Of a stretch of 64,000 bases of DNA, positions 10,126 through 60,663 are shown piece by piece. Source of the DNA: an uncultured Methanosarcinales archaeon (GTDB taxonomy: Archaea > Nanobdellota > Nanobdellia > Woesearchaeales > GW2011-AR15); contig CAZEKF010000005.1 of assembly GCA_964512765.1 (NCBI GenBank), positions 6,414 through 70,413 of the forward strand. Reading direction: 5' to 3'. The stretch's first letter is position 1. The number at the start of each line of letters is the position of its first letter. The notes under the pieces are model-generated. The model saw only the letters and a program-made list of their open reading frames with translations, did no database searches and had not been told where the DNA came from. The translations under genes were made by a program, and so were the position numbers.

Positions 10126-10599
10126 CTATTTAGGAAAATTATTCAGAATTTCAACATTATGTTTCATAGAATAATTCTCTGCAGCTGCTGTAAACACATG
10201 ATGTTTGTCTTTTGTTAAGATGTTACCGTGAACTTTTAAAGCAGCAACAAACATGACTGCGTCGCTTGGATCATTAATTATTTCAAGAACTTTATTATCA
10301 TACTTCTGTACATATTCTTTTTCAGCTTGTATATTACCTGGTGAGACACTTACAGGCAAGTTTGACATTATGTTCAGTTTAAGAAAATCTCTAAGGTGGT
10401 GTATTGTATGGCCTTTGAACTTGTGATGTATGTAATCCAATTCTTCAAGGTTAAAACTTGTCATGCCAACTTTATTATTTTTACAGAAATTAACTAAAGT
10501 TTTGATCTTATCTTTCCTGAACACGTAATACATGAAACAAGTGTCAAGTAAATAATCAACATTATCTGTTTTTGGTAAATTGTCAATGAGTTGTTTCAT
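10126..10599 (-). CDS. PIN-domain nuclease
   Basis: The acidic PIN residues appear in order (LLDTCF, NLEELD, DPSDAVMFVAA, TKDKHH). I start at M25 of the track ORF because the first 24 codons overlap tRNA-Arg. Confidence 0.6.
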   Translation of the reverse strand: MKQLIDNLPKTDNVDYLLDTCFMYYVFRKDKIKTLVNFCKNNKVGMTSFNLEELDYIHHKFKGHTIHHLRDFLKLNIMSNLPVSVSPGNIQAEKEYVQKYDNKVLEIINDPSDAVMFVAALKVHGNILTKDKHHVFTAAAENYSMKHNVEILNNFPK

Positions 10600-10616
10600 T
10601 TTATCATAAAGAAAAG

Positions 10617-10711
10617 TGGGCCAGGGAAGATTTGAACTCCCGACCTTTAGCTTAGAAGGCTTACGGAACACATTGTGTTATACCGCTCTATCCAAGCTGA
10701 GCTACTGGCCC
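10617..10711 (-). tRNA. tRNA-Arg(UCU) with a 20-nt intron inside the 5' strand of the anticodon stem (~10661-10680)
   Basis: GGGCCAG TA GCTC AGCTTGGATA GAGC G GTA[20]GC CTTCTAA GCTAA AGGTC GGGAG TTCAAAT CTTCC CTGGCCC A. The intron is flanked by GCGG-TAT-AACAC...GTGTT-CCGT-AAG (4-bp helix with 3-nt bulges). One 27:43 G.A mismatch remains in the mature stem. Confidence 0.75.
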
Positions 10712-27053: not shown

Positions 27054-30000
27054 TTATACGTCCAAATTAACAACATTCATTGCATTTTCTTGGATAAAGT
27101 TTCTTCTAGGCTCAACGTCTTCGCCCATTAGATTAGAAAACTGTCTGTCTGCTTCAACACCATCTTCAATTGTAACTTGTTTAAGATACCTTTTCTCAGG
27201 GTCCATGGTAGTTTCCCATAACTGTTTAGGATTCATTTCTCCAAGACCTTTGTAACGTTGGATGCTAACGCCTTGTTTACCAAACTCGTTAATTATTGCA
27301 TCTCTTTCTTTATCATTCAACGCGTATCTTTCAGATTTGCCTTTTTTTACCTTGTACAATGGTGGTAAGGCCAAATAGATGTTACCGTTCTCAATCAAAG
27401 GCTTCATGTATCTGAAAAAGAATGTCAAAAGCAGTATTGAAATATGCGCACCGTCAACATCACTATCACACATTATTATTGTCCTGCCATACCTAAGCTT
27501 TGATATGTCAAACTCTTCTTCAATTCCTACTCCCAGAGCAGTAATAATTGCAACAATTTCGTTATTTTTCAAAATTTTGGCTAATCTTGCTTTTTCAACG
27601 TTCAAAACTTTACCTCGTAATGGAAGAACTGCTTGAGTTTCTCTGTTCCTAGCTTGTTTTGCACTGTTATGCACAAAAACACCCGACGCCAATGCAAAAT
27701 TGTGTGTTCCTTCTACTTCAAGATCATAAACATCCATTTTTTGAGGTAATCTAACAATCTCTTTTATTTTGTGATTATATCCTGCAACAGCTTCTATCAT
27801 AGCTGATTCATTATCATTAAAAAATCTCTTAACAAAAGTTTCTTTTTTCAAAAGATTTGTGTTTCTTTTTTTAGTTCTTTCTTGGTCATAATTCTCTAAA
27901 GAACCTTCTTTATCAAGAACGTTTTTCATGAAAGAAATTGTTTGTTTAAAGTAAGTTTTATCATACGCTTCCTTTCTTTTCTCTCGGAATTCTGGTGTCC
28001 ATTGTTCTTTTGTTTTTTCACTTCTCCATTCTTTTAATTTAGTATTTTCCCACTGTTTTTTGGCTATTAAACTTAATTCTTCTCTTGCTTCAGGATGTTC
28101 TTCAAAATATTTTTTTACTTGTTCCGCTCGTTGTTCTCTATTTTCTTTTTTAGCCCAGTATTTTTTTTGTTCTCTATTTAATATTTTCAAATTTTCTTTT
28201 CGATATTCTTCATTGGATTCATAAAATTCTAAATATTTTCTTATCATGAATTCTTTATAATCTTCATTTTCCCATTGCTTCTTTGCTCTTTCAGAAAGCA
28301 TCTTCTTCATTTCTGGAGAAGACATGATTTTACTCATTCTTTTTCTAAATTCTGGTGTTCTACGAGTCTTGGTAGCTTTTTGTTTAATATCTTCTCTATG
28401 TAATATTTTTTCGACTAGCATCGCATGATAAGCCATATGTTCATCTTTTTTCATTTGAAGGATATTATCAGGACTATTATTCAATTTATTGAAATCTATA
28501 TGGTGTTTATCACTACCTAAACCTATTGAATATTTGTCTTTTTCAAGGTTGTATCTATCAGCTAACAAATGAGTAAAAATCCATTTGTGTGTTTTTGGAC
28601 AAAGAACCATTTCATAGCCAGCGATAGTGATTCTTTTCTCAATTTTAGAAAGTTTTCTCTTCAAAGGCATCAAACTTTGAGTATTGGTTAACTTTATTGC
28701 ATTGACATACTCATTATTTCTAGTCATAAATCTATGATCAGGAGTACAGATTATCTCTTCATTGTTATCCAAAATTAATTTAATTACTTCAACATTAGAT
28801 TTTGTTTTTCTTGGATGTTTTATCAAACTAATTCCTACTGAACCATCTTCTTTGATTGTGTAACAATAATTCTTCTTGCCTTTTTTATCTTCTTTTATTA
28901 GTTCTTTAAATGATAAATTACGTCCATCGACTAATGCAACTTTTGTATCGTCTGAAAAACAACCTCCTGCAGAATCTCCTTCAACAATGTATACTTCACA
29001 CTTACTTGGATCTTTTTCTGAACAATCTGCAAGTTTACCTGGTAATGTTGATCCTTCAAGCAAACCTTTTCTCCTTACCAAATCTTTAGCTTTTCTCGCA
29101 GCTTCCCTTGCTTTTGCTGCGTTAACAGCTTTATCTAAAATGAGAGATGCTATCTTTGGATTTTCTTCTAAAAATGTTGTTAATGCTTCAGAAACTGTAC
29201 TGTCAACAATACCTTTAACCTCAGAATTACCCAGTTTAGTTTTTGTCTGGCCTTCAAACTGCGGTTCAGGAACTTTAACAGAAATAACAGCTGCTACACC
29301 TTCACGAACATCGTCACTTGATAATTTAACATCTTTGTTGTTGTTATTAATATATTTATTAATTGTCCTTGTTAGTGCAGTTTTAAACCCTGATAAATGC
29401 GTACCGCCTTCAATTGTGTTAATATTATTAACAAAACTAAATATGTTTTCTTTAAACCCTGAATTATACTGCATTGCAACTTCAACAATAACATCATTTT
29501 TGGTTTTTTCAAAGTAAATTGGATTATGCACTGGGTTTTTGTTCTGGTTAAGATATTCAACAAAAGATATTATTCCTCCGTCATAATGAAACAATTTTTG
29601 TTCATTTGTTCTTTCATCAAGAATTTGGATCTTAATGCCTTTGTTAAGAAAAGCTAGTTCTCGTAATCTCGCTACAAGGATATCAAACTGATATTCAAGT
29701 ACTGTAAATATTTCAGGATCTGGTTTAAACGTAACCATTGTTCCTGTACCCTCATCTTTACCGATTAGTTTCATTTGCGTGACTGGTTTGCCTTTTTTAT
29801 ACTTCTGAGTGTGAACTTTCCCTTCTCTTTTAACAAAAATGTCAAGTTCTTCAGACAATGCATTCACAACTGCCAACCCAACACCGTGCAACCCGCCTGA
29901 AACTTTATAAGAATTCTTGTCAAACTTGCCACCTGAGTGAAGTTTAGTCATAATAATTTCCATTGTTGGCTTTTTGTATTTAGGATGCATACCAATAGGA

Positions 30001-30230
30001 ATACCACGACCGTCATCTGCAACTGAAACTTTTCCAGTTTTATGAACAACTACTTTGATATTTTTAGCATGACCAGCCATTGCTTCGTCTATACTATTAT
30101 CCACAACTTCGTAAACCAAATGGTGTAATCCTCTGCTAGATGTTGATCCAATGTACATACCTGGACGTTTTCTAACAGCGCTTAACCCGCCTAAAACAGT
30201 AATGTCCTTTGCATCGTAGCTTTGTGTCAT
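27054..30230 (-). CDS. gyrB: DNA gyrase subunit B, interrupted by a 432-aa intein
   Basis: GHKL ATPase (YEVVDNSIDEA, DDGRGIP, GGLHGVG). The Toprim motif EGDSAGG is followed by the intein. The extein resumes at SAKQARNRETQAVLPLRGK and continues to PLYK and RYKGLGEM. The extein totals 626 aa. Confidence 0.9.
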   Translation of the reverse strand: MTQSYDAKDITVLGGLSAVRKRPGMYIGSTSSRGLHHLVYEVVDNSIDEAMAGHAKNIKVVVHKTGKVSVADDGRGIPIGMHPKYKKPTMEIIMTKLHSGGKFDKNSYKVSGGLHGVGLAVVNALSEELDIFVKREGKVHTQKYKKGKPVTQMKLIGKDEGTGTMVTFKPDPEIFTVLEYQFDILVARLRELAFLNKGIKIQILDERTNEQKLFHYDGGIISFVEYLNQNKNPVHNPIYFEKTKNDVIVEVAMQYNSGFKENIFSFVNNINTIEGGTHLSGFKTALTRTINKYINNNNKDVKLSSDDVREGVAAVISVKVPEPQFEGQTKTKLGNSEVKGIVDSTVSEALTTFLEENPKIASLILDKAVNAAKAREAARKAKDLVRRKGLLEGSTLPGKLADCSEKDPSKCEVYIVEGDSAGGCFSDDTKVALVDGRNLSFKELIKEDKKGKKNYCYTIKEDGSVGISLIKHPRKTKSNVEVIKLILDNNEEIICTPDHRFMTRNNEYVNAIKLTNTQSLMPLKRKLSKIEKRITIAGYEMVLCPKTHKWIFTHLLADRYNLEKDKYSIGLGSDKHHIDFNKLNNSPDNILQMKKDEHMAYHAMLVEKILHREDIKQKATKTRRTPEFRKRMSKIMSSPEMKKMLSERAKKQWENEDYKEFMIRKYLEFYESNEEYRKENLKILNREQKKYWAKKENREQRAEQVKKYFEEHPEAREELSLIAKKQWENTKLKEWRSEKTKEQWTPEFREKRKEAYDKTYFKQTISFMKNVLDKEGSLENYDQERTKKRNTNLLKKETFVKRFFNDNESAMIEAVAGYNHKIKEIVRLPQKMDVYDLEVEGTHNFALASGVFVHNSAKQARNRETQAVLPLRGKVLNVEKARLAKILKNNEIVAIITALGVGIEEEFDISKLRYGRTIIMCDSDVDGAHISILLLTFFFRYMKPLIENGNIYLALPPLYKVKKGKSERYALNDKERDAIINEFGKQGVSIQRYKGLGEMNPKQLWETTMDPEKRYLKQVTIEDGVEADRQFSNLMGEDVEPRRNFIQENAMNVVNLDV
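27666..28961 (-). mobile_element. intein in GyrB (residues 424-855) carrying an HNH-type endonuclease and K/E-rich repeats
   Basis: Block A CFSDDTKVALVDG. Block B ICTPDHRF. HNH motif DKHHIDFNKLNNSPDNILQMKKDEHMAYH. Repeated AKKQWEN segments. Terminal blocks VYDLEVEGTHNFALASGVFVHN followed by S+1. Confidence 0.8.
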
Positions 30231-40202: not shown

Positions 40203-41978
40203 TTAACTTAAAAATTTAATAACCTGTTTAACAGTTAATAACTGTTCTTTCCCACTCTTCATATCCCTTAGTTTTACTTTGCCTTGTTTGAGTTCTTTTT
40301 CACCCACAAACACAACATAAGGAAGTCCATAAGAATTTGCATATTGAAGATTTTTGCTTATTCCTCGCTCTAGTAAATCAATATCTGTGTTGATACTTTT
40401 TTCTCTTAACTGCTGTGCTAATTTCAAAGATTGTTTTAATGTTTTAATTGGAATGATGTACAATTTAGTAACTGATTTCTTATTGGCTTTGTTTTTTTCT
40501 TTCAATGCTTCTATGATTACTTCTATGCCAAAACTAATTCCTGTTGCTGGGATTATTTCTTTTGTTCCTAAATAATTTCCAATTAATTCATCATATCTGC
40601 CACCACCTGCTGCAGAACTTGTCAATGAAGATTCTTTTAAAAGCACTTCGTATATTGGACCAGTGTAATATGCAAGACCCCTAGCTAAGCTTGGGTCAAA
40701 CACAATGCTTTTTATCTTATACATTTCGAGAAAATCAAGTAGCTCTCCCATTTCCTGTATCCCTTGCTTACCAATCTTACTTTTAATTATAGATTTTAAT
40801 TTATCAAGAGTTTTTCTATTTGTTTTATCCTTTGACAGGGTATCTAAGATGAACTTTATTTTATCTTTACTATACCCTTGTTCAGATAATTCCTTTGTAA
40901 CTCCTTTTTTGCCTATTTTTTTCAACTTATCAATTGAAACTGTAACAGATTCCCAATCTTTTTTTTTAATTCCAGAATCTTCTAAAACTCCCTCGATTAC
41001 TTTTCTGTTATTTACTTCAATGTAAAACTTGAATCCTAACTCACTAAAAACAGCATCAGTAACTGCTAATATTTCTGCATCTGCAATCATACCTTTAACT
41101 CCAACTATATCTGGGTCAAACTGTCTAAAGCTTCGGTACCTGCCTTTTTTAATGGGCCCATCTCTAAACACTTCACCTTCTAAATATTTTTTAAATGGCA
41201 TTTTAATAGATGGGTTCATTGCAATATACCTTGAAAAAGGTACTGTCATGTCAAATCTTAATCCTAATTTTCTACCACCATTATCTGTTGAAACAAAAAT
41301 CTCCTTTAAAGCATCAGACTCTTCACCTGCTGCAAATTTAGCTGCTAATGTTTCATATCTTTCAAGAATGGGTGTTTCAATTGGACTAAACCCATAAGTT
41401 TCACAAACCTTCTTGATTGTATTAAGAACATAATCTCTAAGGATTTTTTCATTAGGCCCGAAATCTCTTGTGCCTTTAGCTAAATCTATTTTAGATTTTT
41501 TCATTTTTTTAGGTGGTTCTTCTTTATCTAAAACTGTTGATACTATGCTGTATGTATCTTTACCTTTTTTTTCTATCTTTTTTATCTTAAATATGCCAAT
41601 CTCTTTTGTATTATCAACATGAGGGTTGCCACATGCTTGTATATCAAAATCTTTTATTTCAACTACCCTAATCTTTTTAACAGACTCAGGCACCATTGAT
41701 AAGTCAACAAGCTTTTGAGCTTTTTCCCTGCTCATGTTTGTTTTTGTAACTGGCAGATTCTTTTTTATTACTTCATTTACTTTAGTCTCTAACTCCTCAG
41801 GTCCTACCTCCCTAAGATCTTTTTTACACTCCATAACAATCCTTATCTTGTTATCTCCAATATCAAGAGCTTTCTGGATTGTTTTATACTGAGTTCTAAG
41901 AATATTATAAAAAACATGTTCTCCTGATTCCAGTCTTGCGCGTTTACTTACCATAATCTTCACCCTTTCAATGGCCAA
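40203..41978 (-). CDS. hisS: histidyl-tRNA synthetase with an N-terminal AlaX-S-like (tRNA_SAD editing-type) domain
   Basis: Residues ~1-160 carry EHVFYN (HxxxH-like), VVEIKDFDIQACGNPHV (CxxxH) and IGIFKIKKIEKKGK. The HisRS core follows: KGTRDF, RGLAYYTG and GGGRYD. A C-terminal anticodon-binding domain is present. Confidence 0.8.
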   Translation of the reverse strand: MAIERVKIMVSKRARLESGEHVFYNILRTQYKTIQKALDIGDNKIRIVMECKKDLREVGPEELETKVNEVIKKNLPVTKTNMSREKAQKLVDLSMVPESVKKIRVVEIKDFDIQACGNPHVDNTKEIGIFKIKKIEKKGKDTYSIVSTVLDKEEPPKKMKKSKIDLAKGTRDFGPNEKILRDYVLNTIKKVCETYGFSPIETPILERYETLAAKFAAGEESDALKEIFVSTDNGGRKLGLRFDMTVPFSRYIAMNPSIKMPFKKYLEGEVFRDGPIKKGRYRSFRQFDPDIVGVKGMIADAEILAVTDAVFSELGFKFYIEVNNRKVIEGVLEDSGIKKKDWESVTVSIDKLKKIGKKGVTKELSEQGYSKDKIKFILDTLSKDKTNRKTLDKLKSIIKSKIGKQGIQEMGELLDFLEMYKIKSIVFDPSLARGLAYYTGPIYEVLLKESSLTSSAAGGGRYDELIGNYLGTKEIIPATGISFGIEVIIEALKEKNKANKKSVTKLYIIPIKTLKQSLKLAQQLREKSINTDIDLLERGISKNLQYANSYGLPYVVFVGEKELKQGKVKLRDMKSGKEQLLTVKQVIKFLS

Positions 41979-43075
41979 AATGGCTTTATCAATGATTTTT
42001 CAAACAAATCTTTTTTTCTCCAATTAATTTCAATTTTATTTTCTTTCATTATTATCATTCCTTTAAAATGCAATGCAAACACGACTTTTTTAAGGAAATC
42101 TTCTGGTACTTTGATTTTCTTTGATATTTCTTCAACAGTTTTTGGTTTAACACCTTCCCTTAACACCAAATATTCAACAGGTGGTATTTTTTCAGGTTCA
42201 ACTTTAAATGAGAATTTTATCAGGAAATTCTCAAGTTTACCTTTTGGAGTGTATTCAATTGGTAAATCATCTGATACTAAATATGAATTTACTTTTTCTC
42301 TGTTATTAGACAGGTATTCCATTAACATTTTTCCTATTAATTTCTGGCCGCCGTGTAAGTACAACCTGGCAAAGATCTTCATGTACTCGAAATACCGTCT
42401 GGTAAAGTTATGTTCATCTTTAACCTTACTAAAAATGTAACATCTTTCTCTGTAATATTTTAGCACGTCAAAGTTTTTTGTAAGGTCATAGTATATTTTT
42501 AATGAATACCATTGGCACAAACCTTCTTCAAACCATTCAATATACATTTGGTCTTTACTTTTATTCTGTGATAGACATGAATGCAATTGTTCATGTATCA
42601 ATAATATTGGCGTGAAAAACGAACTAACTCTTTTGTTAAGGAAATATATGCCTGCGTTTTTGTTACCTTCAAATATTGTTACTGAACTAGCACCTTTTTT
42701 TTCAAATGATATTAATCCCTGCGGAAAATTGTCATCAAAAAAAATAGATCTTGTTTTGAAGTTCATACCTAATGTTTTTTTTACTTCGTCACGAATTTTA
42801 GGAAGCATGTCTCGCCATAATTTCTCGTCAAACTGTTTCGGCGTGGTTTTCAATTCTTTTTGTATTTTCTTAATATCTTCTTTAAGAATCGTGTTGTACG
42901 CCATGACATTGTTAGTCTTTACTAAATTCTTTAACTTGATATCTGTAGCTTCTGAATAATCGTTTTCTTCATTGAAATTTTTATCCAGTAACTTGTACAT
43001 GCTAGGTTTATAATATCCTAACTTTGTTTTGAAGAACGTGTCTTCAATTACCCGTAATTCTGATAAATTGATCAT
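41960..43075 (-). CDS. hypothetical HExxH protein with a C-terminal winged-helix-like region
   Basis: LLIHEQLHSCL motif. The C-terminal TVEEISKKIKVPEDFLKKVVFALHFKGMIIM is wHTH-like. The gene lies between hisA-IE and hisS, overlapping hisS by 19 nt. Confidence 0.4.
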   Translation of the reverse strand: MINLSELRVIEDTFFKTKLGYYKPSMYKLLDKNFNEENDYSEATDIKLKNLVKTNNVMAYNTILKEDIKKIQKELKTTPKQFDEKLWRDMLPKIRDEVKKTLGMNFKTRSIFFDDNFPQGLISFEKKGASSVTIFEGNKNAGIYFLNKRVSSFFTPILLIHEQLHSCLSQNKSKDQMYIEWFEEGLCQWYSLKIYYDLTKNFDVLKYYRERCYIFSKVKDEHNFTRRYFEYMKIFARLYLHGGQKLIGKMLMEYLSNNREKVNSYLVSDDLPIEYTPKGKLENFLIKFSFKVEPEKIPPVEYLVLREGVKPKTVEEISKKIKVPEDFLKKVVFALHFKGMIIMKENKIEINWRKKDLFEKSLIKPFWPLKG

Positions 43076-43085
43076 CTTATTTCAC

Positions 43086-44330
43086 CTATTGTTCATTTAA
43101 CTCCTCTGATTTTATATAATTTCTTATTTTAAGCTCGTTTTCTATGTCTTTATAATCAATATTGTTCTTAACCATTAACACAGATATAAAATATAACATG
43201 TCTGCAATTTCCCATCTTAAGTTGTTTTTATCAGTATAATTAATCACTTCATTTGCTTCTTCAATGATTTTCTTTATTAACTTTGGTTCATTGTTTAATA
43301 ATTTATCTGTGTATGAATTACTGCCTTTTCTTGATTTAATTATATCTAATAAATCATTGAAACTGAATTCTTTGTCTGAAAAACAACTATAATCTCCTTC
43401 ATGACAAGCTACGTTTTTCTGTTTAACAGTAAAAATTAACGTATCACTGTCACAGTCTGTCTGTATTCTTAACAACTCTTGTGTGTTACTTGATGTTTCG
43501 CCTTTTTTCCATAACTTGTTCCGAGTTCTTGAATAATAGATTCCTTTTCTTTGCTTCAGTGCTTGTTGTACTGATTTTTTATTACTAAATGCTAGCATTA
43601 ATATTTGATTATTTTGGTCTTTGACAATGGTTGGAATTAAACTCATGTTTTTTTCAAAATTTAACAACGAAACAAAGATATCATTATAATTTATCTTATT
43701 TTCATAATATGCCATGCCAATAACAGCGTCAATATCATACCTTGCTAGTTCCAAAATTTGTTCTTTTGTTGATACACCACCTGCATATTGTATTTTATTA
43801 TTTGTAATTTCTCTTAACCTTAATGCTGTATCAATATCAATTCTTTCCATTGTACCTTCCTTGTCAACATATGTGTATAAAAAACCTGAGCAATAGTCTT
43901 GTAATTCAATCACCTTTTCAATCGCTGTCTTGTTTGTTTTATTAGTCCATGCTTTATCAACAATTTTACCTTGTTTTGAGTCAACTGCAACAATAATTTT
44001 TTCTTTTGACAATTTCTTAAGGAAGTCTTTATTAGCTTTTGTTCCAATGATTATTTTGTTTGCTCCTAATTTAAGTATTTCATACGCTTGATCAACTGTC
44101 CTAATACCTCCACCAACATTACAGTTACAGATTTTACATATTTTTCTGATTAATTCAATATTGCTACCTTTGCCAAAAGCTGCGTCAAGATCAATTAAAT
44201 TAACTTCTGGATAAATTGAAAACTTCAGAGCTAAAGCTAATGCATCTTCCTCAAATTTCTTGTTTTGAGGATTGCCCTGAACTAATTTCACCACTTTTCC
44301 ATTCATTAAATCTATACTCGGAACTAAAAT
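43086..44330 (-). CDS. hisA: HisA-HisI-HisE triple fusion (ProFAR isomerase, PR-AMP cyclohydrolase and PR-ATP pyrophosphatase)
   Basis: HisA is the N-terminal domain (VKLVQG...GGGIR). HisI follows (IPTIVKDQNNQILMLAF, SRTRNKLWKKGETS, DCDSDTL, ACHEG..SCF). HisE is the C-terminal domain (SYTDKLL, EEANE, EIADMLY). The conserved VPSIDL strand lies upstream of the first ATG (44306), so the 5' end is set at ATT 44328-44330. That start is uncertain. Confidence 0.75.
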   Translation of the reverse strand: MLVPSIDLMNGKVVKLVQGNPQNKKFEEDALALALKFSIYPEVNLIDLDAAFGKGSNIELIRKICKICNCNVGGGIRTVDQAYEILKLGANKIIIGTKANKDFLKKLSKEKIIVAVDSKQGKIVDKAWTNKTNKTAIEKVIELQDYCSGFLYTYVDKEGTMERIDIDTALRLREITNNKIQYAGGVSTKEQILELARYDIDAVIGMAYYENKINYNDIFVSLLNFEKNMSLIPTIVKDQNNQILMLAFSNKKSVQQALKQRKGIYYSRTRNKLWKKGETSSNTQELLRIQTDCDSDTLIFTVKQKNVACHEGDYSCFSDKEFSFNDLLDIIKSRKGSNSYTDKLLNNEPKLIKKIIEEANEVINYTDKNNLRWEIADMLYFISVLMVKNNIDYKDIENELKIRNYIKSEELNEQ

Positions 44331-45079
44331 CTTACATCAACTCCTTTATTATTCAAATAAGTTTTAACATCATTTATTGAATACTGATCAAAATGGAAAA
44401 TACTAGCAGCTAATGCTGCATCTGCTTTTCCTTTTGTAAATGCTTGATATATTTGTTCTAAATCACCTGCACCACTGCTAGCAATAACAGGTATGTTAAC
44501 AGATTCTGAAATTAATTTAGTTATTTCTAAATCATAACCTTGTTTCATACCATCTGTGTCTAATGAGTTAAGCAGGATTTCACCTGCACCTAATTTTTCG
44601 CACTGTTTAGCAAATTCTAAAGCATTAATTCCTGTTGATTCTTTTCCTCCATAGATGTACAATTCCCAATAATCATTGTTTTTCTTAACATCTAAGGATA
44701 TAACAATGCACTGTGAACCAAATTTATTTGAGGCTTGTTTTATGATTTCAGGGTTTTTCACAGCTTCTGTGCAAAACGCTACTTTATCTGCTCCGTTTTT
44801 TAGGAGCAATTTAATGTCATCAATGGTTTTTATTCCACCACCAACAGTGAACGGAATAAAGATGTTATTAGCTACATTTCTTACTATTTCCAACATAGTT
44901 TTTCTGTTTTCAATGCTTGCTGTAATGTCAAGGAAACATAACTCGTCAGCGCCTTCATTATAATATTTTATAGCTAACTCTACAGGATCACCAATTTCTT
45001 TCAAATTCTTGAAATTAGTGCCTTTGACTACTTTTCCATTTTTTACGTCCAAACAAGGTATGATTCTTTTTGTCAACAT
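44324..45079 (-). CDS. hisF: imidazole glycerol phosphate synthase cyclase subunit HisF
   Basis: RIIPCLDV, DELCFLDI, GGGI and SLDTDG motifs. Confidence 0.9.
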   Translation of the reverse strand: MLTKRIIPCLDVKNGKVVKGTNFKNLKEIGDPVELAIKYYNEGADELCFLDITASIENRKTMLEIVRNVANNIFIPFTVGGGIKTIDDIKLLLKNGADKVAFCTEAVKNPEIIKQASNKFGSQCIVISLDVKKNNDYWELYIYGGKESTGINALEFAKQCEKLGAGEILLNSLDTDGMKQGYDLEITKLISESVNIPVIASSGAGDLEQIYQAFTKGKADAALAASIFHFDQYSINDVKTYLNNKGVDVRF

Positions 45080-45675
45080 TATAACTCACCAAAGTTCTTC
45101 AACATCTTCAGTCCAATCTCACTTGATTTTTCAGGGTGGAACTGTGTTGCATACACATTATATTTTTGGATTCCACTCACGAATTTTGTACCATAGTTTG
45201 TCGTTGTCAACACAACATTATTATCCTCAGGAACAACATAGTATGAATGCACAAAGTAAAAATATCCATTATCTATCCCATTTAGTAATAATGATTCTTT
45301 TTTTTGTTCAACATTGTTCCATCCAATTTGAGGTATTTTTACATTGTTTGGAAATCTTTTTATTTTTCCTTTGATCAATCCAAGCCCTTTAACGCCCAGA
45401 TCTTCTTCACTGTTCTCAAACAATATTTGGAGTCCTATACAAATGCCAAGGTAAAGTTTTCCTTTCTTAATCTCTTCAATCATAACTTTATCAAGCTTTT
45501 CTTCTCCAAGCTTAGTCATGACATCACCAAACCTTCCTTGGCCAGGCAAGATCAATTTATCTGCGTTCATAATCTCTCCTGGATCATCTGTAACCTTGTT
45601 TTTTATTCTAAGATAATCAAGTGCATTCTTGACACTACCTATATTACCTGATCCGTAATCTATTATCGCTATCAT
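45079..45675 (-). CDS. hisH: imidazole glycerol phosphate synthase amidotransferase subunit HisH
   Basis: IAIIDYGSGN, GICIGLQ and FHPEKS triad motifs. Confidence 0.9.
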   Translation of the reverse strand: MIAIIDYGSGNIGSVKNALDYLRIKNKVTDDPGEIMNADKLILPGQGRFGDVMTKLGEEKLDKVMIEEIKKGKLYLGICIGLQILFENSEEDLGVKGLGLIKGKIKRFPNNVKIPQIGWNNVEQKKESLLLNGIDNGYFYFVHSYYVVPEDNNVVLTTTNYGTKFVSGIQKYNVYATQFHPEKSSEIGLKMLKNFGEL

Positions 45676-46262
45676 AGTGTACCTTTTGTACTTGGTATCT
45701 TATCTTTTACCCTGTTATCTATCTCGACTGCTTGTCTGATTGCTTTTGCAAAAGCTTTGAAAATACCTTCAATTTTATGGTGGTCATTTCTTTTTTTGTT
45801 TAACAATTTAACATGGAGGTTTAGCTTTGCATTCTGAGCTATTGCACCAAAAAAATCATACACTAACTCAGTTGATAAATCACCAACTTTTTCTCTATTA
45901 AACTCTGCGTCAAACTCAAAAGCATATCTTCCTGCAAAGTCTAAGCTGACTAAAGCAAGGACTTCATCCATTGGCAATATCATTGTACCGTATCTTCGAA
46001 TGCCTTTTTTGTCACCTACTGCTTTTAACAATGCTTGACCAAGTACTATTCCAATATCTTCAACAGTGTGATGTTCATCTATCTCAATGTCACCTTTTGC
46101 ATTCACTTCTAAATTTATTAGAGAGTGTTTTGCAAACAAGTCTAGCATGTGGTTAAGAAAACCAACTGGTGTCTGGATTTTTCTTTTACCAGAACCGTCT
46201 AGGTTAACTGAAACAGTAATTTGTGTTTCTTTTGTATCACGTTTAATCTTAGCAGTCCTCAT
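45672..46262 (-). CDS. hisB: imidazoleglycerol-phosphate dehydratase (monofunctional HisB)
   Basis: RDTKET, DEHHTVED and NDHHKIE motifs. No phosphatase domain. Confidence 0.9.
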   Translation of the reverse strand: MRTAKIKRDTKETQITVSVNLDGSGKRKIQTPVGFLNHMLDLFAKHSLINLEVNAKGDIEIDEHHTVEDIGIVLGQALLKAVGDKKGIRRYGTMILPMDEVLALVSLDFAGRYAFEFDAEFNREKVGDLSTELVYDFFGAIAQNAKLNLHVKLLNKKRNDHHKIEGIFKAFAKAIRQAVEIDNRVKDKIPSTKGTL

Positions 46263-47953
46263 TTTAGCACCTCATTTAATTTGTTAATATTGTTCAAAAC
46301 AACCTTAACACCTTTATTTTCAAAAAGTTCCTTGATTTTTTCTGATGGAACTGGCGGTATTATTCCAATTGAATCAATATCTGCTTTATTTGCTGCATTA
46401 ATATCATCAACTGTATCACCTATGTACACTACGTTTTTTGCATTCAATTCTTTCATTGCTCTCTTTATTCCATCAGCTTTTTCAGGTTCATCGTCCATTG
46501 TAAAAATAACTTTGAAGAATTTGTCTAAACCAAATTTCTTAATTGTATAATCCGCATCTCTTTTTGGTCTACCTGTTACTAAACCTAACTTGTATTTTTC
46601 AGAAAGTTCTTCCAAAAAATCTAAACTAACAATCAGAGTTTCATTATCAATAGCACCGCCTAAGTAAATAGCGTCAAACTTTTCTCTGATTTCGTCTCTT
46701 GTTTTCTCAACACCACGTTCTTTTAGAATAGCTTGTGTACAGTCCCAGTCATTGTTCAAACCGCCTTTTTCCTTATATTTCTGTATTTGTTCAAAGGTTA
46801 TTTCTTTGTCTTTTAGAAAATATTCTGCTGTTTGTTTAATCGCAACTCTGTAAGATTTTGAAACATCTACTAAAACACCGTCCATATCGAATAGTAAGGT
46901 ATCGTATTTGTTCAATTTAGTCAAGATTATTTTCAATGCTTCAATTAATTTTTCACACTGTTCTTTCTTCCCAACAGTTATTCTTAAACAATTCTTAACA
47001 TAACTATTTCTATCTCTTACTAGTATTCCTAGTTTTTTTAATCCTGCATACACTGTTTTATACCTTAAACCAAAATCAACTAAGAAAAAGTTTGCACTAC
47101 CTTGATAAAATTTAATTCCAAGTTTATTTAGTTCATTGTATAGATATTTTTTATTAGTTATAATTTCACCAACATAGTTTTCAACGTATTCGTAATCTTC
47201 CAGTGCTGCTTTAACAATTTTATTTGCAAGACAAGTTATACTGTAAGGAGAGTTTACTTTTTGAAACAATTCAATATTCTCTTTATTTGAGATTAAATAT
47301 CCTAACCTCAATCCTCCAAGTCCAAACGCTTTTGAGAAAGATCTAAGTATTACTAGATTCGGATACTTATCAATTAAATCAACACATGTTTCCTTTGTAA
47401 ACTCAGAATATGCTTCATCTAATAAAACAATAGAATTTTTTGCTTTGTCAAGTATTTTAATTATGTCTTTTCTTAGTATTGATGTGCCAGTAGGATTGTT
47501 TGGATTCACTAGTACAATTAGTTTAACATTTTCATTAATTGCATTTAAAACTTCATCTGTTGGAAAAGATAAATCTGGTTTGTATTGCACATTTTTAATA
47601 TTTGCACCATTTAACTCTGCATAAAACTTAAACATAGCAAAAGTCGGTGTTGGAAGCAAAACTGTATCACCTTTACTAACAAAAGTATTCATTATTAACA
47701 TAATCCCTTCATCTCCTGCATTTGTTGGAATAATTTTTGACATGTCAACTTTAACAAAATCAGCAATAAGTTTTCTTAACTCGTTATATTCTGGATACAT
47801 CGATAGTTCACTTGCTGTTACTGTTTTTAATGCTTCAATTACTTTTGGTGAACAACCTACTGTGTTCTCATTAAAATCTAATCTCATATATTCACTTCTA
47901 CTACAAGTAGGTGGACTGTACGGTGCCATTTTTATTACTTCTTTTCGTATCAT
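46259..47953 (-). CDS. hisC: histidinol-phosphate aminotransferase fused to a C-terminal HAD-superfamily phosphatase domain
   Basis: HisC occupies residues 1-~345 (NPNNPTG, SFSKAFGLGGLRLGY). The HAD domain follows from ~350 (LLFDMDGVLVD, GLVTGRP, GDTVDDINAA). Confidence 0.8.
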   Translation of the reverse strand: MIRKEVIKMAPYSPPTCSRSEYMRLDFNENTVGCSPKVIEALKTVTASELSMYPEYNELRKLIADFVKVDMSKIIPTNAGDEGIMLIMNTFVSKGDTVLLPTPTFAMFKFYAELNGANIKNVQYKPDLSFPTDEVLNAINENVKLIVLVNPNNPTGTSILRKDIIKILDKAKNSIVLLDEAYSEFTKETCVDLIDKYPNLVILRSFSKAFGLGGLRLGYLISNKENIELFQKVNSPYSITCLANKIVKAALEDYEYVENYVGEIITNKKYLYNELNKLGIKFYQGSANFFLVDFGLRYKTVYAGLKKLGILVRDRNSYVKNCLRITVGKKEQCEKLIEALKIILTKLNKYDTLLFDMDGVLVDVSKSYRVAIKQTAEYFLKDKEITFEQIQKYKEKGGLNNDWDCTQAILKERGVEKTRDEIREKFDAIYLGGAIDNETLIVSLDFLEELSEKYKLGLVTGRPKRDADYTIKKFGLDKFFKVIFTMDDEPEKADGIKRAMKELNAKNVVYIGDTVDDINAANKADIDSIGIIPPVPSEKIKELFENKGVKVVLNNINKLNEVLK

Positions 47954-49248
47954 TTTTCATCATCCTCAAACCTTATTTTAACTGAATTAGCGTGAGCAGG
48001 TAAACTTTCAAGCTCTGCTATTGTAACAATAGTATTTTTTAATGAATCAAGCCCTTGCTTTGTTAATTTTTGGATAGTTGGCATTTTCAAAAAATCATAA
48101 ACACTTAACCCTGACTTTACCTTAGCATACTGTCCTGTTGATAACACATGGTTAGTGCCAGAACAATAATCACCTGCAGCTTCCACACTATATTCTCCAA
48201 AAAATATTGAACCTGCATTAGATATCCTGTCCAAGATGGAGTCATCATAACCAATGATTTCTAAGTGTTCAGGTGCAAAATCATTACTAAACTCAATAGC
48301 TTGGTCAACAGAATCTACTACAACAATACAACTATAATTTTCAAAAGATTTTTTAATGATTTCTTTTGATTCAAACTTAGCTGTTTGTTTAATAATTTCT
48401 TTTTTTACGGATTCTGCTAATTGTCTTGACTCTGTAAACAATAAACCACACGCAACTTCATCATGTTCAGCTTGTGCTAGCATGTCAGCTGCTACGAACC
48501 TTGGATTAGAATCTTTTGAAGCAATGATTACTACTTCACTCGGGCCAGCAGGAATGTCAATACCAACTTCACCATACAACCATTTCTTAGCTGCTGTGAC
48601 ATAGATATTACCTGGACCGACTATCTTGTTAACTTTAGGAATAGTTTTTGTGCCATACGCTAAAGCAGCTATTGCTTGAGCACCACCAGATACAATAATT
48701 TTATCAGCACCTGCCAGATCTGCTGCAACAATAATTGCTGGGTTTGCTTTACCATTTTTTTGAGGTGGTGTTGCTACAATAATTTCTTTAACTCCTGTAA
48801 CCTTAGCAGGAACAATTGTCATTAATGTTGTAGAAGGTAAAGGATAATTACCTCCAGGTATGTAACATCCTACTCTTTCAATTGGCCTAATAAAAACACC
48901 GCAGTTAACTCCCTTAGATATTTCAGTTAAGAAAGGTTTTGGTTTTTGGGTTTCTGCAAACTTTTTAATATTAGACAATGCTTTTTTTATTGCTGTAATT
49001 TGGTTTTCATCTACTATCTTGTAAGCTTCATTAATTTCATTTTTACTGACAATCAGATCACTTTCTTTTAATTTTACATTGTCGAACTTATTTGCATATT
49101 CAACTAATGCTTTGTTGCCATTAATCTTTACATTATTGATTACTTGTTTTACTTTATCCTCTATTTCTGTAAGATCTGAACTTGACCTTTGTTTAACTTT
49201 ATTGATTTCTTCTTTGTCCTTGTTATAATCTAAGATTCTTACTTTCAT
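47950..49248 (-). CDS. hisD: histidinol dehydrogenase
   Basis: YIPGGNYPLPST, QAEHDE and APEHLE motifs. Confidence 0.9.
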   Translation of the reverse strand: MKVRILDYNKDKEEINKVKQRSSSDLTEIEDKVKQVINNVKINGNKALVEYANKFDNVKLKESDLIVSKNEINEAYKIVDENQITAIKKALSNIKKFAETQKPKPFLTEISKGVNCGVFIRPIERVGCYIPGGNYPLPSTTLMTIVPAKVTGVKEIIVATPPQKNGKANPAIIVAADLAGADKIIVSGGAQAIAALAYGTKTIPKVNKIVGPGNIYVTAAKKWLYGEVGIDIPAGPSEVVIIASKDSNPRFVAADMLAQAEHDEVACGLLFTESRQLAESVKKEIIKQTAKFESKEIIKKSFENYSCIVVVDSVDQAIEFSNDFAPEHLEIIGYDDSILDRISNAGSIFFGEYSVEAAGDYCSGTNHVLSTGQYAKVKSGLSVYDFLKMPTIQKLTKQGLDSLKNTIVTIAELESLPAHANSVKIRFEDDEK

Positions 49249-49830
49249 TTTCTATCACCTATAATAACAAAATCTGAATAGAAAATTTTGTCATAAACTT
49301 TCAAGCCAAGCTTTTTCATAGACTTGCCAGTATATACAATATCAATCACTAACCCAGCAATGCCTGCTGAATAACTTGCTTCTGTACTACCTTTTACATA
49401 GAATTTTTTGAAATTAAATCCTCTAGTTTCAAGTAAGTTAAGGTATTTTTTTGACAGAAGTTTGTATTTATTACTAATACAGATCGATTGTTGTTTGGGA
49501 ATATTGTCAAGGTCTTTGTTATCTGGTCCAAGTAAACATAAAACAGGTTTATTAAACAAAGCTTTGGGATCATTCCAATCAATAATCTTAAGAATTTTTG
49601 TAGTTGTTTTGTAATTCTTTAAACAATATTCTTTGTAAAGGTCTTGGCCAGTTATACCAATGGCTTTTTTACCTTGTTTGGTTAATTCTTCAACCCAAAA
49701 TGGAACATCTTCACCACGTACTTCAAGAGTTTCTTTAGGTTCCAAAGTTTCAATAAATTCCTTGTATTTCCTTAATCCACTATTCTTTGGTACAACAGTG
49801 AATACAACCAGTCTCTATGACTCTTTCCAT
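49245..49830 (-). CDS. hisG: short-form ATP phosphoribosyltransferase HisG; the 5' end needs a +1 frame change or a non-canonical start
   Basis: The track ORF (TTG 49745) begins at RGEDVPFWV...IGITGQDL and therefore lacks the N-terminal strand. The conserved-looking LVVFTVVPKNSGLRKYKEFIETL is encoded in the same frame upstream (49746-49811) without an ATG, GTG or TTG. An ATG at 49828-49830 with GGAGGT 6 nt upstream lies in the frame one nucleotide off. Confidence 0.65.
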
Positions 49831-58161: not shown

Positions 58162-60663
58162 TTATTTGTTCATCTCTTCTAAAACCTTAATCACAAACTC
58201 AACATGTTCATTAAACTCAATACCGAACTTTTCTATCCCATAGTTTATCTCTTCTCTGCTAACTTTTGCTGCAAATTTCATGTCTTTGAACTTTTTCTTG
58301 AATGATTTAACTTTCATTCCTTTGAATCCGTCTGGTCTCATTAATGAATATGCGTACATTATACCTGTTAACTCATCAACAGCTAACAATCCAAAAGCTA
58401 GTTTAGTCTGTGGTTTAACACCTGTTTCTAAGTAGCAATGTGCTTCAACTGCATGCACCAACTCATCAGGATATTTCTTTTTCTTAAACCATTCAATTTC
58501 TTTAAACGGATGTTCATTTGGATGTTCTTGATAATCAAGATCATGCAACAGTCCAGTAACATACCATAACTGTTTATTCTCTTTTAACTTTTCAGCGTAT
58601 TTTTCCATGACATAAGCAACTGTCTTAGCGTGTTCTACCTGGTACTTGTCCTTAACATGTTTTTTCAATAATGCCATTGCTTCTTTTCTAGAAGGTAATC
58701 CTGATAAATCCTTAGAAATTTTCTTTTTAGGAGTACTAACAGCTTTTGCACTTGAATCATACAATTCAAACTTCTCAGTTATTTTATCAACAACTGATTT
58801 TTTACCAAACACTAAAACACCTAAATATTCTATATCTTTTTGTTTTTTAGATTTTGTCCAATCAACAACTTTTGTATCATCTGTTGTTTCAATCATCTCT
58901 CTGGTAAATTCACTAACTTGTAATCCTTTATTTTTCGCAGTTTTTATTAAATTAAAAACCTCTTCTTTAGACTTTGCAGTTTTAATCATGATTGCGTGCT
59001 GGATGTTAAGTTTAATGTTTTTATCATCTTTTGTGGTTATTTCATCTTGCAAAAATAGACTCTTACCTATCCTTGCAGCAAACGCAGCATTAAGATGCGC
59101 AACAGTGTTCATTTCTTCCCATAGTTTAAGTTTCAACCCTTTGTTAATAACGGCAACAGCAATTTTAGATTCTTTTGATTTAACAGCTTCTGGAATGTCC
59201 AATGGTTTCATAATAGGGAACAAAATAATGTCCCGGATAGATTCCTGGCCAGTCATTAGCATTATCATTCTATCAACGCCAACACCGTTACCGCTGTTAG
59301 GCGGAAGACCATATTCTAATGATTCAACAAAGTCCATGTCCAAGGGATGGGCTTCATCGTCACCAGCTTTCATTTGCTCAGCTTGTTCCTGGAAATTTTT
59401 CAACTGTAAAACAGGATCGTTTATTTCAGTGTATAAGTTTCCAACTTCCCATGTATTTACAAAAGATTCAGCTCGCTCAGCATATCTGTTATCATACCTA
59501 CACGGTTTTGCTAAAGGACATATCTCAACAGGATGGTCAATAATATGCACTGGCTGGATTAACTTTTCTTCGCACAATTCTTCAAACAATAATGAGATAG
59601 CTAATCCTTTTGAATACTTACCTTGAATCTCAATGTCGTGTTTTTTTAGTAATTTTTTAACTTCTTTATCATTCAATTTTTCAGCATCGATCTTTGCATA
59701 TTTTTTCAAAGCATCAACCATCCTTAATTTCGGCCATGGTGCTTTAACATCAATAGTTTTTTTGCCAAATTTTAATTTTGTAGTTCCTAACAATTTTTTA
59801 GCAACATATTCCCATAACTCTTCTGTTAACTTCATGTTATCATTGTAATCAGCGTACGCCCATTGTATTTCCATCATAGTAAACTCTGGGTTATGCGTTT
59901 TATCACTACCTTCATTTCTAAAACATGAGCTAAGGTCATAGATTTTTTCAAATCCACCAACAATTAATTTTTTCAAATAAATTTCATATGCAATACGCAA
60001 GTACATTTTCATGTCCCATGCATTAATCTTTGTAACAAACGGTCTTGCTAAACCACCACCATATAATGGCTGTAATATAGGAGTTTGTACTTCCATGAAT
60101 CCTTTATTATCAAGGAACTCTCGAATATATTTCATAATGTTTGATCTTTTAACAAACACATCTTTTGCTTCAGGGTTAACAACAAAGTCAACGTATCTTT
60201 TTCTATACCTTGATTCAATATCTTTCAACCCGTGATATTTTTCAGGAAATGGTCTTATTGACTTAGCCAGAAAAGTAAACTTTTTTACAAAAACACTTAT
60301 CTCACCAGTTTTAGTTGTGAAAACAATGCCTTTGACACCAACACAATCTCCAACATCTACTTTTTTAAAGATTTTATACTGATCTTTAACTTCGTCTTTT
60401 CTAATATGAACTTGAATTTTACCTGAACCGTCTTGTAAATGAAAAAACGCAACTTTACCCATGTTTCTTAACGAAACTACCCTCCCCGCTATTGAAACAT
60501 TATGTTTTGTGTATTTCTCAGGTTTTAACTTCTTATGTTTTTTAAGAATTTCTTGAGCAGAATTCTTTTGATCGTAGTTATACGGGTATATTTCAACACC
60601 CCAACTTTCTAATTCTTTGAGCTTATCCTTACGTTCTTTTACTAACCTATGTTCTGAGTCCAT
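58162..60663 (-). CDS. lysS: class II lysyl-tRNA synthetase fused to DUF2000-like and HD-domain modules
   Basis: LysRS occupies residues 1-~497 (OB anticodon-binding domain, FRNEGSDKTHNPEFTMME, GVGVDRMIMLMTG). Residues ~505-640 are DUF2000/PTH2-like (IAVAVINKGL...NTVAHL...YLGVLVFGKKSVVDKIT). Residues ~655-833 are an HD domain (HAKTVA...GLLHDLD...AVEAHC). Confidence 0.8.
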   Translation of the reverse strand: MDSEHRLVKERKDKLKELESWGVEIYPYNYDQKNSAQEILKKHKKLKPEKYTKHNVSIAGRVVSLRNMGKVAFFHLQDGSGKIQVHIRKDEVKDQYKIFKKVDVGDCVGVKGIVFTTKTGEISVFVKKFTFLAKSIRPFPEKYHGLKDIESRYRKRYVDFVVNPEAKDVFVKRSNIMKYIREFLDNKGFMEVQTPILQPLYGGGLARPFVTKINAWDMKMYLRIAYEIYLKKLIVGGFEKIYDLSSCFRNEGSDKTHNPEFTMMEIQWAYADYNDNMKLTEELWEYVAKKLLGTTKLKFGKKTIDVKAPWPKLRMVDALKKYAKIDAEKLNDKEVKKLLKKHDIEIQGKYSKGLAISLLFEELCEEKLIQPVHIIDHPVEICPLAKPCRYDNRYAERAESFVNTWEVGNLYTEINDPVLQLKNFQEQAEQMKAGDDEAHPLDMDFVESLEYGLPPNSGNGVGVDRMIMLMTGQESIRDIILFPIMKPLDIPEAVKSKESKIAVAVINKGLKLKLWEEMNTVAHLNAAFAARIGKSLFLQDEITTKDDKNIKLNIQHAIMIKTAKSKEEVFNLIKTAKNKGLQVSEFTREMIETTDDTKVVDWTKSKKQKDIEYLGVLVFGKKSVVDKITEKFELYDSSAKAVSTPKKKISKDLSGLPSRKEAMALLKKHVKDKYQVEHAKTVAYVMEKYAEKLKENKQLWYVTGLLHDLDYQEHPNEHPFKEIEWFKKKKYPDELVHAVEAHCYLETGVKPQTKLAFGLLAVDELTGIMYAYSLMRPDGFKGMKVKSFKKKFKDMKFAAKVSREEINYGIEKFGIEFNEHVEFVIKVLEEMNK

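Follow-up and report, generated by a model that had tools for sequence, protein, structure and literature searches.

The gene described here, an alaX-S::hisS fusion, lies in a 64,000-nucleotide stretch of DNA (hereafter the window; contig CAZEKF010000005.1 of assembly GCA_964512765.1, positions 6,414 to 70,413 of the forward strand) from an uncultured archaeon assigned to the Woesearchaeales, and it encodes an AlaX-S-type domain that is genuinely fused to a complete histidyl-tRNA synthetase (HisRS) in one polypeptide. An AlaX-type domain at the HisRS N-terminus had been proposed in an earlier note made from the letters of this DNA, and profile searches, structural comparison and the wider distribution of the architecture all agreed with the proposal. 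Judging from its sequence, the N-terminal domain is most likely an active Ser/Gly-tRNA deacylase tethered to HisRS.

The family of the N-terminal domain was determined with both kinds of profile that the earlier note had recommended. Pfam tRNA_SAD (PF07973) matched residues 95-132 with 49.8 bits against a gathering score of 24 (E=3.3e-13), and positions 96-227 of the NCBIfam AlaX-M model (NF040865) matched residues 7-135 (E=1.9e-22). As an equivalog, NF040865 failed, with 80 bits against a trusted cut-off of 300, and the N-terminal AlaX-M subdomain was absent. A search of PDB sequences with residues 1-155 returned Pyrococcus horikoshii AlaX-S (1v7o/1wnu) as the top match (E=1e-12). The AlphaFold2 (AF2) model of the same residues, computed with 45 homologues in the input, showed a mean predicted local distance difference test score (pLDDT) of 93.8, and Foldseek analysis against the PDB again placed 1v7o/1wnu at the top, with a TM-score of 0.77-0.78 and a root-mean-square deviation of 2.9 Å over about 155 columns at 30% identity. 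The next matches were the editing domains of AlaRS and AlaX-M, with the N2 domains of ThrRS further off. In the full-length AF2 model (pLDDT 87.3), residues 1-145 and the HisRS body were confidently predicted and residues 148-157 fell below 50; as modelled, the protein is two folded modules joined by a flexible tether.

The domain has the same minimal editing fold, without additional domains, as AlaX-S (type I AlaXp; P. horikoshii PH0574; 1V7O, 1WNU, 1WXO), is alike in size (about 145-155 amino acids), and has in common with it the catalytic Cys, within a CxxxH motif, and the second HxxxH His. It differs from AlaX-S in its fusion to HisRS, in having Glu for the first His of HxxxH, and in its place within a DPANN-rich 'mini-AlaX' clade of 138-147 amino acids; in a loop alignment of low confidence, Thr30 of AlaX-S aligns with Gln. 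AlaXp proteins are defined as free-standing, whereas the present domain sits covalently on HisRS in one open reading frame (ORF).

The remainder of the protein is a HisRS with all its domains above gathering scores. The hisS model TIGR00442 was passed with 358.2 bits against a trusted cut-off of 286.75 over residues 159-573, and Pfam tRNA-synt_His and HGTP_anticodon were both matched. The HisRS signatures are readily seen in the sequence, namely motif 2 (GRYRSFRQFD), LARGLAYYTG with the His-binding RGLxYY loop, and motif 3 (GGGRYDELI). HisRS dominated the Foldseek results of the full-length model, the body giving target-normalised TM-scores of 0.75-0.84 against HisRS structures, and the core was nearest to the Elizabethkingia, Nostoc and human enzymes. 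The hisZ model TIGR00443 failed (170.5 bits against 271.65), its weak match falling in the HisRS core, and thrS TIGR00418 also failed (57.6 bits against 383.65), with its best match within the anticodon domain only.

The reality of the fusion was confirmed in independent data. Eight metagenome runs in public archives, from two studies of marine and seawater samples, contained the junction region, and the contigs of four independent runs were identical to the window over positions 41300-42100, with 0 substitutions and 0 gaps, which contradicts the possibility, raised in the earlier note, that corrected assemblies would assign the N-terminal region to a separate upstream ORF. The exact 583-amino-acid protein was found on 9 contigs from four sources (NCBI, JGI, ENA and Logan), and at least 12 divergent DPANN orthologues with 45-77% identity preserve the architecture and the reading frame. 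A methionine codon inside the linker, Met151 (41502-41504), lies near the place where stand-alone HisRS usually begin, the unfused relatives starting with M-x(1-4)-AKGTRD, and this would be in keeping with an assembly or frameshift error that joined separate alaX and hisS genes. Such an artefact is nevertheless of negligible probability in view of the identical junctions and proteins and of the in-frame orthologues, several of which have no internal Met. The Met is retained at this position in several fused relatives and absent from others, and Met151 may be a relic start codon. Inspection of the sequence upstream of Met151 revealed no Shine-Dalgarno (SD)-like element, unlike the starts of the fusion gene and of the two neighbouring genes examined, which are preceded by GGTGA- or GGAGG-type elements.

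Inspection of the ORF gives the ATG at 41954-41952 as the plausible start of the fusion gene. The domain had been placed at 41498-41978 in the earlier note, an extent that begins too far upstream: the TTG at 41978 was considered as a start and rejected, as it falls within the upstream ORF, whose stop codon is at 41960-41962. In locus L003, an unfused hisS starts with ATG GTT (MVELAKGTRD) behind the same AGGTGA overlap of stop and SD (AGGTGA-N7-ATGGT); by comparison with this locus, the AlaX module of the window is placed between 'MV' and 'LAKGTRD'.

Next, the residues of the editing site were compared. The EIGIFKIKKIEKKGK hairpin and the CxxxH motif (ACGNPHV, with C108-G-N-P-H112) are located where the earlier note had placed them. 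Its statement that one zinc ligand is replaced was also right, but the residue concerned is the first His of HxxxH, which is Glu in E9-S-G-E-H13, and not the last residue of an HxxxN, the register having been set one helical turn off; the second His is kept. The present register is based on the alignment of H9-S-A-L-H13 of P. horikoshii AlaX-S with E9-S-G-E-H13, on fused relatives retaining L-H-T-A-[DE]-H-I-L, which align to the same position, and on the alignment with about 100 free-standing relatives. Of the 13 fused domains, eight have Glu and five have His at position 9, the full HxxxH (HTA[DE]H) being retained in 5/13, and H13, C108, H112 and T116 are found in 13/13. The free-standing mini-AlaX proteins (n=99) have His (46), Gln (30), Glu (6) or other residues (the remainder) at this position, so that 53/99 have no first HxxxH His and 36/99 have Glu or Gln there. 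None of the 99 lacks the Cys or the His of CxxxH, and both residues occur in 112/112 mini-AlaX domains overall. The central Gly of CxGxH is absent from the window protein, as it is from P. horikoshii AlaX-S (CNKEH). The mini-AlaX sample (P0002-P0011, P0157-P0180, P0306-P0337) contains many DPANN proteins and one labelled Berkelbacteria.

The consequence of Glu9 can be considered in the light of mutational work by Gogoi et al. 2025 (PMC12003907), in which the Cys of CxGxH was crucial for editing and zinc was dispensable for both structure and editing, its role being to shield the Cys from oxidants. Of the two HxxxH histidines, that study tested only the second, and mutants with Ala in its place still deacylated Ser/Gly-tRNA-Ala and still rejected Ala-tRNA-Ala (PMC12003907). 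Loss of the ligand had been taken in the earlier note as a sign that the domain was repurposed; given the invariance of H13, C108, H112 and T116, the five fused domains that keep HxxxH and the dispensability of zinc (PMC12003907), Glu9 is no evidence of a dead or repurposed domain, and its probable effect is a weaker or altered zinc site, not a loss of catalysis. The HxxxH zinc motif has been described as universally conserved (PMC12003907), and yet, in the present alignments, this motif, said to be invariant across life, is often altered in the mini-AlaX clade. The natural Glu and Gln variants bear directly on the proposed Cys-shielding role of the zinc site.

The fused proteins were collected with a full-length protein search and an exhaustive search of 1.84 billion representative proteins; homologue tables made with the N-domain alone omitted the fused proteins, even that of the window, and were unusable for counts of fused and free forms. 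The survey of the distribution, which the earlier note had suggested, showed the architecture in the at least 12 DPANN proteins mentioned above, nine of which are listed in Table 1; the representative search added P0181 (608 amino acids) and the truncated P0158. The named entries of the fused proteins are called merely 'histidine--tRNA ligase', an annotation that conceals the additional domain. Most near HisRS relatives are unfused (about 425-435 amino acids), some of them 71-74% identical to the window core, and the fused proteins occurred at seven or more separate places among the unfused in a neighbour-joining (NJ) tree of 120 HisRS cores. A metagenome-contig search with a narrower profile yielded 3 loci, 2 fused and 1 truncated, and a genome-contig search with the single N-domain returned distant AlaX/AlaRS loci only, none adjoining HisRS.

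In the NJ tree of N-domains, at least four mini-AlaX subtypes could be distinguished among the fused domains, and every subtype had free-standing siblings of 138-145 amino acids that end at a natural C-terminus; siblings of this kind, with 138-147 amino acids, are found in related organisms. The window protein and P0022 group with P0023, P0024, P0033, P0091 and the free-standing P0002 (up to 69% identity), P0060 and P0079 with P0176 (57-58%), domain 1 of P0025 and P0142 with P0162 (41-43%), and P0181 with P0165 (53%); identity to the free-standing siblings is 53-69% for three of the fused subtypes and 41-43% for the fourth. The two parts of the proteins differ in their relationships: the cores of P0033 and P0142 are 68% identical and their N-domains 35%, whereas P0091 is 63-71% identical to P0023, P0024 and P0033 in the N-domain and 41-49% in the core. 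P0025 carries both mini-AlaX subtypes in tandem before HisRS, one with the canonical HTAEH and one with ESAQH, and its core is 69-76% identical to those of P0033 and P0142. The core of P0181 belongs to another HisRS subfamily, nearest to the Thermoplasma acidophilum and trypanosomatid enzymes. The diversity of subtypes, the scattered cores, the tandem arrangement and the two HisRS subfamilies point to an origin of AlaX-HisRS through repeated fusion or domain swapping; because the NJ trees were made without support values, the exact number of fusion events is uncertain, and the qualitative pattern is robust.

In the closest fused pair, the N-domains are 75% and the cores 78% identical, and this near-equal conservation agrees with purifying selection acting on the domain. 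The linkers of the fused proteins are disordered and differ in length, from about 12 to 40 residues. Among the 150 best N-domain matches in the 1.84 billion representatives, every multi-domain protein checked was AlaRS, AlaX-M/L or HisRS. In P0074 (636 amino acids), HisA is fused to HisRS at the same N-terminal place, and the HisRS N-terminus is a recurrent fusion site in the lineage. An origin of the fusion from a conserved adjacency of alaX and hisS was considered and rejected, since 2 of 4 free-standing alaX-S contexts contain no HisRS-like gene (L004, with about 6 kb on either side, and L023, a 2.7-kb contig). In L026, the free-standing alaX-S is two genes upstream of hisS with one gene between them, and in L002 the contig end is too near alaX-S to show the hisS context.

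As to function, we tentatively favour, at somewhat less than an even chance, that the domain keeps the task of AlaX-S in trans, removing Ser and perhaps Gly from tRNA-Ala or tRNA-Thr, with HisRS as a permissive carrier. A tether of about 12 residues would link a catalytically competent deacylase (residues 1-145) to a housekeeping HisRS, and the deacylase would hydrolyse small wrong amino acids from tRNA 3' ends, with Ser-tRNA-Ala and possibly Ser-tRNA-Thr as substrates. HisRS would act as the scaffold, being dimeric, expressed constitutively and permissive at its N-terminus, and would fix the dose and location of a deacylase having little tRNA specificity itself. AlaX-S reportedly lacks specificity for its tRNA. 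His-tRNA-His would be left untouched because His is too large for the pocket. That mini-AlaX works without HisRS is suggested by the free-standing genes, which are mostly not beside hisS, and that HisRS works without the module by the unfused enzymes that are 71-74% identical and in the same synteny. The placement of HisA in P0074 likewise suggests that the HisRS N-terminus is permissive, and a LysRS with a DUF2000 and HD extension, encoded in the window, indicates that fused aminoacyl-tRNA synthetase genes are not unique here.

Several observations weigh against a mere carrier role. With HisRS as a carrier only, the domain would be expected on other synthetases or housekeeping proteins as well, and HisRS is the sole partner outside the AlaRS/AlaX family among the 150 best matches; that the fusion recurs in at least four subtypes of mini-AlaX and in two subfamilies of HisRS suggests a specific tie to HisRS or tRNA-His. 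The Gln at the Thr30 position may mean that specificity differs from that of AlaX-S, as judged from the alignment. Labelled Woesearchaeota and other DPANN metagenome-assembled genomes encode AlaX-M, and if the organism also has AlaX-M, another deacylase for Ser-tRNA-Ala would in part duplicate its work.

The same exclusive and recurrent pairing speaks for a different function, proofreading by HisRS itself, in which the tethered domain would edit tRNA-His in cis. HisRS would grip tRNA-His through the anticodon and G-1:C73 while the flexible 3' end moves over from the synthetic site to the deacylase, and the target would be a small non-cognate amino acid put on tRNA-His by HisRS or by another synthetase. 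Bacterial ThrRS follows the same logic, as does the YbaK-ProRS-tRNA complex, where a deacylase without specificity of its own takes it from the synthetase. We regard this as the foremost alternative, possible though rather unlikely. It is supported by the at least four AlaX subtypes found on HisRS cores scattered among the unfused, by the incongruent identities of N-domain and core (P0033/P0142 and P0091), by the tandem subtypes of P0025, by the domain of P0181 on a different HisRS subfamily, by the lack of any other non-AlaRS partner among the 150 best matches, and by a domain order as in ThrRS. The alaX-S gene of L026 near hisS and the tRNA-His genes found 1.4 kb (L022) and 4.3 kb (L020) from fused hisS genes speak in the same direction. 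On the other hand, no HisRS is generally known to need editing, nor is a natural near-cognate amino acid generally known for HisRS, and the review PMC7373986 lists none. HisRS enzymes that are 71-74% identical manage without the domain, the disordered linkers of variable length are unlike the fixed geometry of ThrRS, and both examined tRNA-His genes are canonical, offering no obvious cause of mischarging. The wider proposition that HisRS truly edits in cis in a set of DPANN archaea, and that free-standing mini-AlaX proteins dock on the unfused HisRS of related species, is doubtful, if worth entertaining. If it were true, HisRS would join the synthetases needing post-transfer editing and a hidden source of tRNA-His mischarging would be revealed; as a corollary, HxxxH, called invariant since the last universal common ancestor, would be routinely dispensed with in a large natural clade of editing domains.

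A non-catalytic appendage, which would bind or chaperone the acceptor stem and CCA end and raise the affinity of HisRS for tRNA-His, is improbable. The loss of the first zinc ligand in 8/13 fused domains and the flexible N-terminal tether, as with eukaryotic tRNA-binding appendages, would fit such a module. A pure binding module should, however, tolerate ligand loss, and the invariance of the catalytic Cys and the other two ligands therefore speaks against it, as does the retention of all four ligands in 5 fused domains. Moreover, the Glu or Gln substitution also occurs in the 36/99 free-standing members, which have no synthetase to help, and the mutants of the second HxxxH His stay active (PMC12003907).

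The closest likeness in module order is to bacterial and eukaryotic ThrRS, which also combine a SAD-superfamily editing domain, a class IIa core and an HGTP anticodon domain. In ThrRS, the connection to the editing domain is fixed, whereas the linker here is short, variable and disordered; in addition, the core is HisRS, and a TGS domain is missing. By Foldseek, the editing domain resembles AlaX/AlaRS (E=5e-13) more than ThrRS N2 (E=7.5e-7). No aromatic residue is found 9-10 positions before the Cys that would correspond to ThrRS Tyr173 (PMC12003907), a comparison of linear offset only.

The nearest precedent is the bacterial fusion of SepRS with an N-terminal tRNA-Thr-ED, a DTD-like domain. 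There, too, an editing module is joined to a synthetase not known to need it, and the fusion was found through metagenome mining, with free-standing homologues of the domain in DPANN and euryarchaea (Mukai et al. 2022, PMC8762117). Both the fold (tRNA-Thr-ED as against SAD/AlaX) and the synthetase (SepRS as against HisRS) differ. YbaK/ProXp with ProRS (PMC6344894) is a possible functional analogue, in that a weakly tRNA-specific deacylase stands beside a class IIa synthetase and trans-editing factors gain tRNA specificity by binding the synthetase; its fold is unrelated, and the association is non-covalent there and covalent here.

The earlier note had called the architecture unfamiliar for HisRS, and a full-text literature search likewise turned up no account of HisRS fused to an AlaX or tRNA_SAD domain. 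In reviews, AlaX-type domains are confined to AlaRS, ThrRS and free-standing AlaXp (PMC11580382, PMC7373986). The sequences themselves have already been made public, and the architecture is probably to be found in automated domain databases. The fusion represents known modules in an undescribed and evidently selected combination, whose function is readily testable. HisRS is a synthetase for which neither an editing domain nor a need for editing has been described, and the recurrent and independently re-evolved AlaX-S::HisRS fusion is a 'Rosetta-stone' signal of a functional connection in DPANN archaea. It raises the testable question of whether tRNA-His is mischarged or HisRS is a docking platform for a generic Ser-tRNA deacylase.

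Table 1. Features of the window around the fusion gene, fused homologues and related loci. Positions are those of the window unless a locus is named; identity is to the window protein; aa, amino acids; wHTH, winged helix-turn-helix.
Feature	Positions	Strand	Identity	Length	Basis or remarks
alaX-S::hisS fusion gene	40203..41954	-		583 codons + stop	Single ORF, three Pfam domains
SD-like GGGTGA	41960..41965	-			Overlaps stop of upstream gene, 5 nt 5' of ATG; read from sequence
AlaX-S-type editing-fold domain, residues 1-145	41520..41954	-			Pfam, NCBIfam, PDB, AF2/Foldseek
E9-S-G-E-H13, HxxxH variant with Glu for first His	41916..41930	-			Alignments and census
C108-G-N-P-H112, CxxxH with catalytic Cys	41619..41633	-			Alignments and census
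Flexible Lys/Glu/Pro-rich linker, residues 146-157	41484..41519	-			pLDDT <50 for residues 148-157
HisRS class IIa catalytic core, residues 161-479	40518..41474	-			PF13393 E=3.3e-37, TIGR00442, Foldseek, motifs
HGTP anticodon-binding domain, residues 498-582	40209..40463	-			PF03129 E=5.6e-16
Upstream neighbour, 371-aa protein	41960..43075	-		371 aa	HEQLH-x18-E, weak C-terminal wHTH, translationally coupled to fusion gene
his operon upstream of fusion gene	43086..49830	-			Pfam/NCBIfam; hisB, hisH and hisF from ORF translations and syntenic operon
P0022, fused			77%	585 aa	
P0023, fused			60%	587 aa	Woesearchaeota, MBN2422166.1
P0024, fused			57%	593 aa	Nanoarchaeota, MBU0758425.1
P0025, fused			52%	745 aa	'archaeon', MFH0876380.1
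P0033, fused			52%	586 aa	
P0040, fused			51%	580 aa	
P0060, fused			48%	583 aa	
P0079, fused			48%	573 aa	
P0091, fused			45%	591 aa	Aenigmarchaeota, PIV68190.1 and others, 74 contigs
Homologue of 371-aa protein	L001 1413-2528				
Homologue of 371-aa protein	L003 4836-5993				
Homologue of 371-aa protein	L021 6850-7959				
tRNA-His(GUG)	L020 2033-2105				4.3 kb upstream of fused alaX-hisS
tRNA-His(GUG)	L022 6545-6617				1.4 kb upstream of fused alaX-hisS

The fusion gene is the last of a his operon with the order short-form hisG, hisD, hisC-HAD, hisB, hisH, hisF, hisA-hisIE, the gene of the 371-amino-acid protein and alaX-hisS. The short HisG to which the earlier note had drawn attention is indeed a short form (49245-49745; PF01634 only, with no HisG_C), but it is not adjacent: its gene is at the opposite end of the operon, at a distance of 7.3 kb. 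The earlier note had suggested HisZ-like regulation of this HisG, and a link of the protein or its AlaX domain to histidine biosynthesis in this way is very improbable. For it are the position of the gene at the end of a his operon with short-form HisG, the lack of any other HisRS-like gene and of a separate hisZ within the 64-kb window, the joining of HisA to HisRS in P0074 and the weak matches of HisZ profiles to the HisRS core. A HisZ-like role would, however, fall to that core, which may moonlight in this way, and the syntenic operon of P0028 carries an unfused HisRS (71% identical) in the gene order of the window (hisC-HAD, hisB, hisH, hisF, hisA-IE, a 372-amino-acid protein, hisS, an MFS transporter and MetAP, with one additional phosphoribosyltransferase gene between hisF and hisA-IE). 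Fused genes, for their part, occur with no his genes nearby (P0091 and P0060) or beside a hisA/I remnant only (P0023). As the AlaX domain thus does not track the his operon, a HisZ-like role for it is unlikely. The protein also passes the hisS cut-off and fails that of hisZ, and it keeps the anticodon-binding domain that HisZ typically does not have, although it resembles HisZ in being a HisRS-like core in a his operon with short HisG. No AlaX-type domain was found on HisZ among the HisZ matches in the PDB or the NCBIfam HisZ profiles.

The state of hisG argues in the same direction. Its N-terminal 25 or so residues (RLVVFTVVPKNSGLRKYKEFIET; 49745-49830, minus strand) have no canonical start codon, and the ATG at 49830, which is preceded by GGAGGT, opens another frame (MERVIETGC...); this frame break was identical in four independent assemblies. 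Expression of hisG calls for either a shift of 1 nt or initiation at a non-canonical codon (CTG at 49811), and the anomaly could reflect a pseudogene, recoding or an unusual start. Two other genes of the operon are composite. HisC carries a C-terminal HAD hydrolase (TIGR01548-like; 46259-47953, minus strand), which may supply the missing histidinol-phosphate phosphatase, and HisA, HisI and HisE form a triple fusion (43086-44306, minus strand).

The 371-amino-acid protein encoded upstream of the fusion gene matched no Pfam family above cut-off, and a search of PDB sequences gave no useful match. It contains the gluzincin-like motif LLIHEQLH-x18-E (HExxH...E). Homologues with 62-78% identity precede hisS in L001, in L003 (unfused) and in L021 (fused). 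With the window, this makes four relatives in which the gene stands directly 5' of hisS, with overlapping stop and SD, irrespective of the AlaX domain or the his operon.

The fused alaX-hisS genes of L020 and L022, near which tRNA-His genes were found, are unrelated to each other. Both tRNA-His have an encoded G-1 and C73 and no G3:U70; an unusual tRNA-His was considered as the cause of the fusion and rejected on these canonical genes.

Further observations were made elsewhere in the window. The class II LysRS mentioned above (833 amino acids; NF001756, 650 bits; 58162-60663, minus strand) bears a DUF2000 domain at residues 503-635, which we take to have a PTH2-like fold, and an HD/HDIG domain at residues 677-754. 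No PDB sequence match was obtained for this C-terminal extension, which is possibly a tRNA-related hydrolase module. GyrB (27054-30230, minus strand) contains an intein, with an Intein_splicing match at residues 433-855, near the Toprim domain. ARAGORN detected a tRNA of 96 nt at 10616-10711 (minus strand), with its isotype not called and possibly an intron, which overlaps the end of the ORF at 10126-10671.

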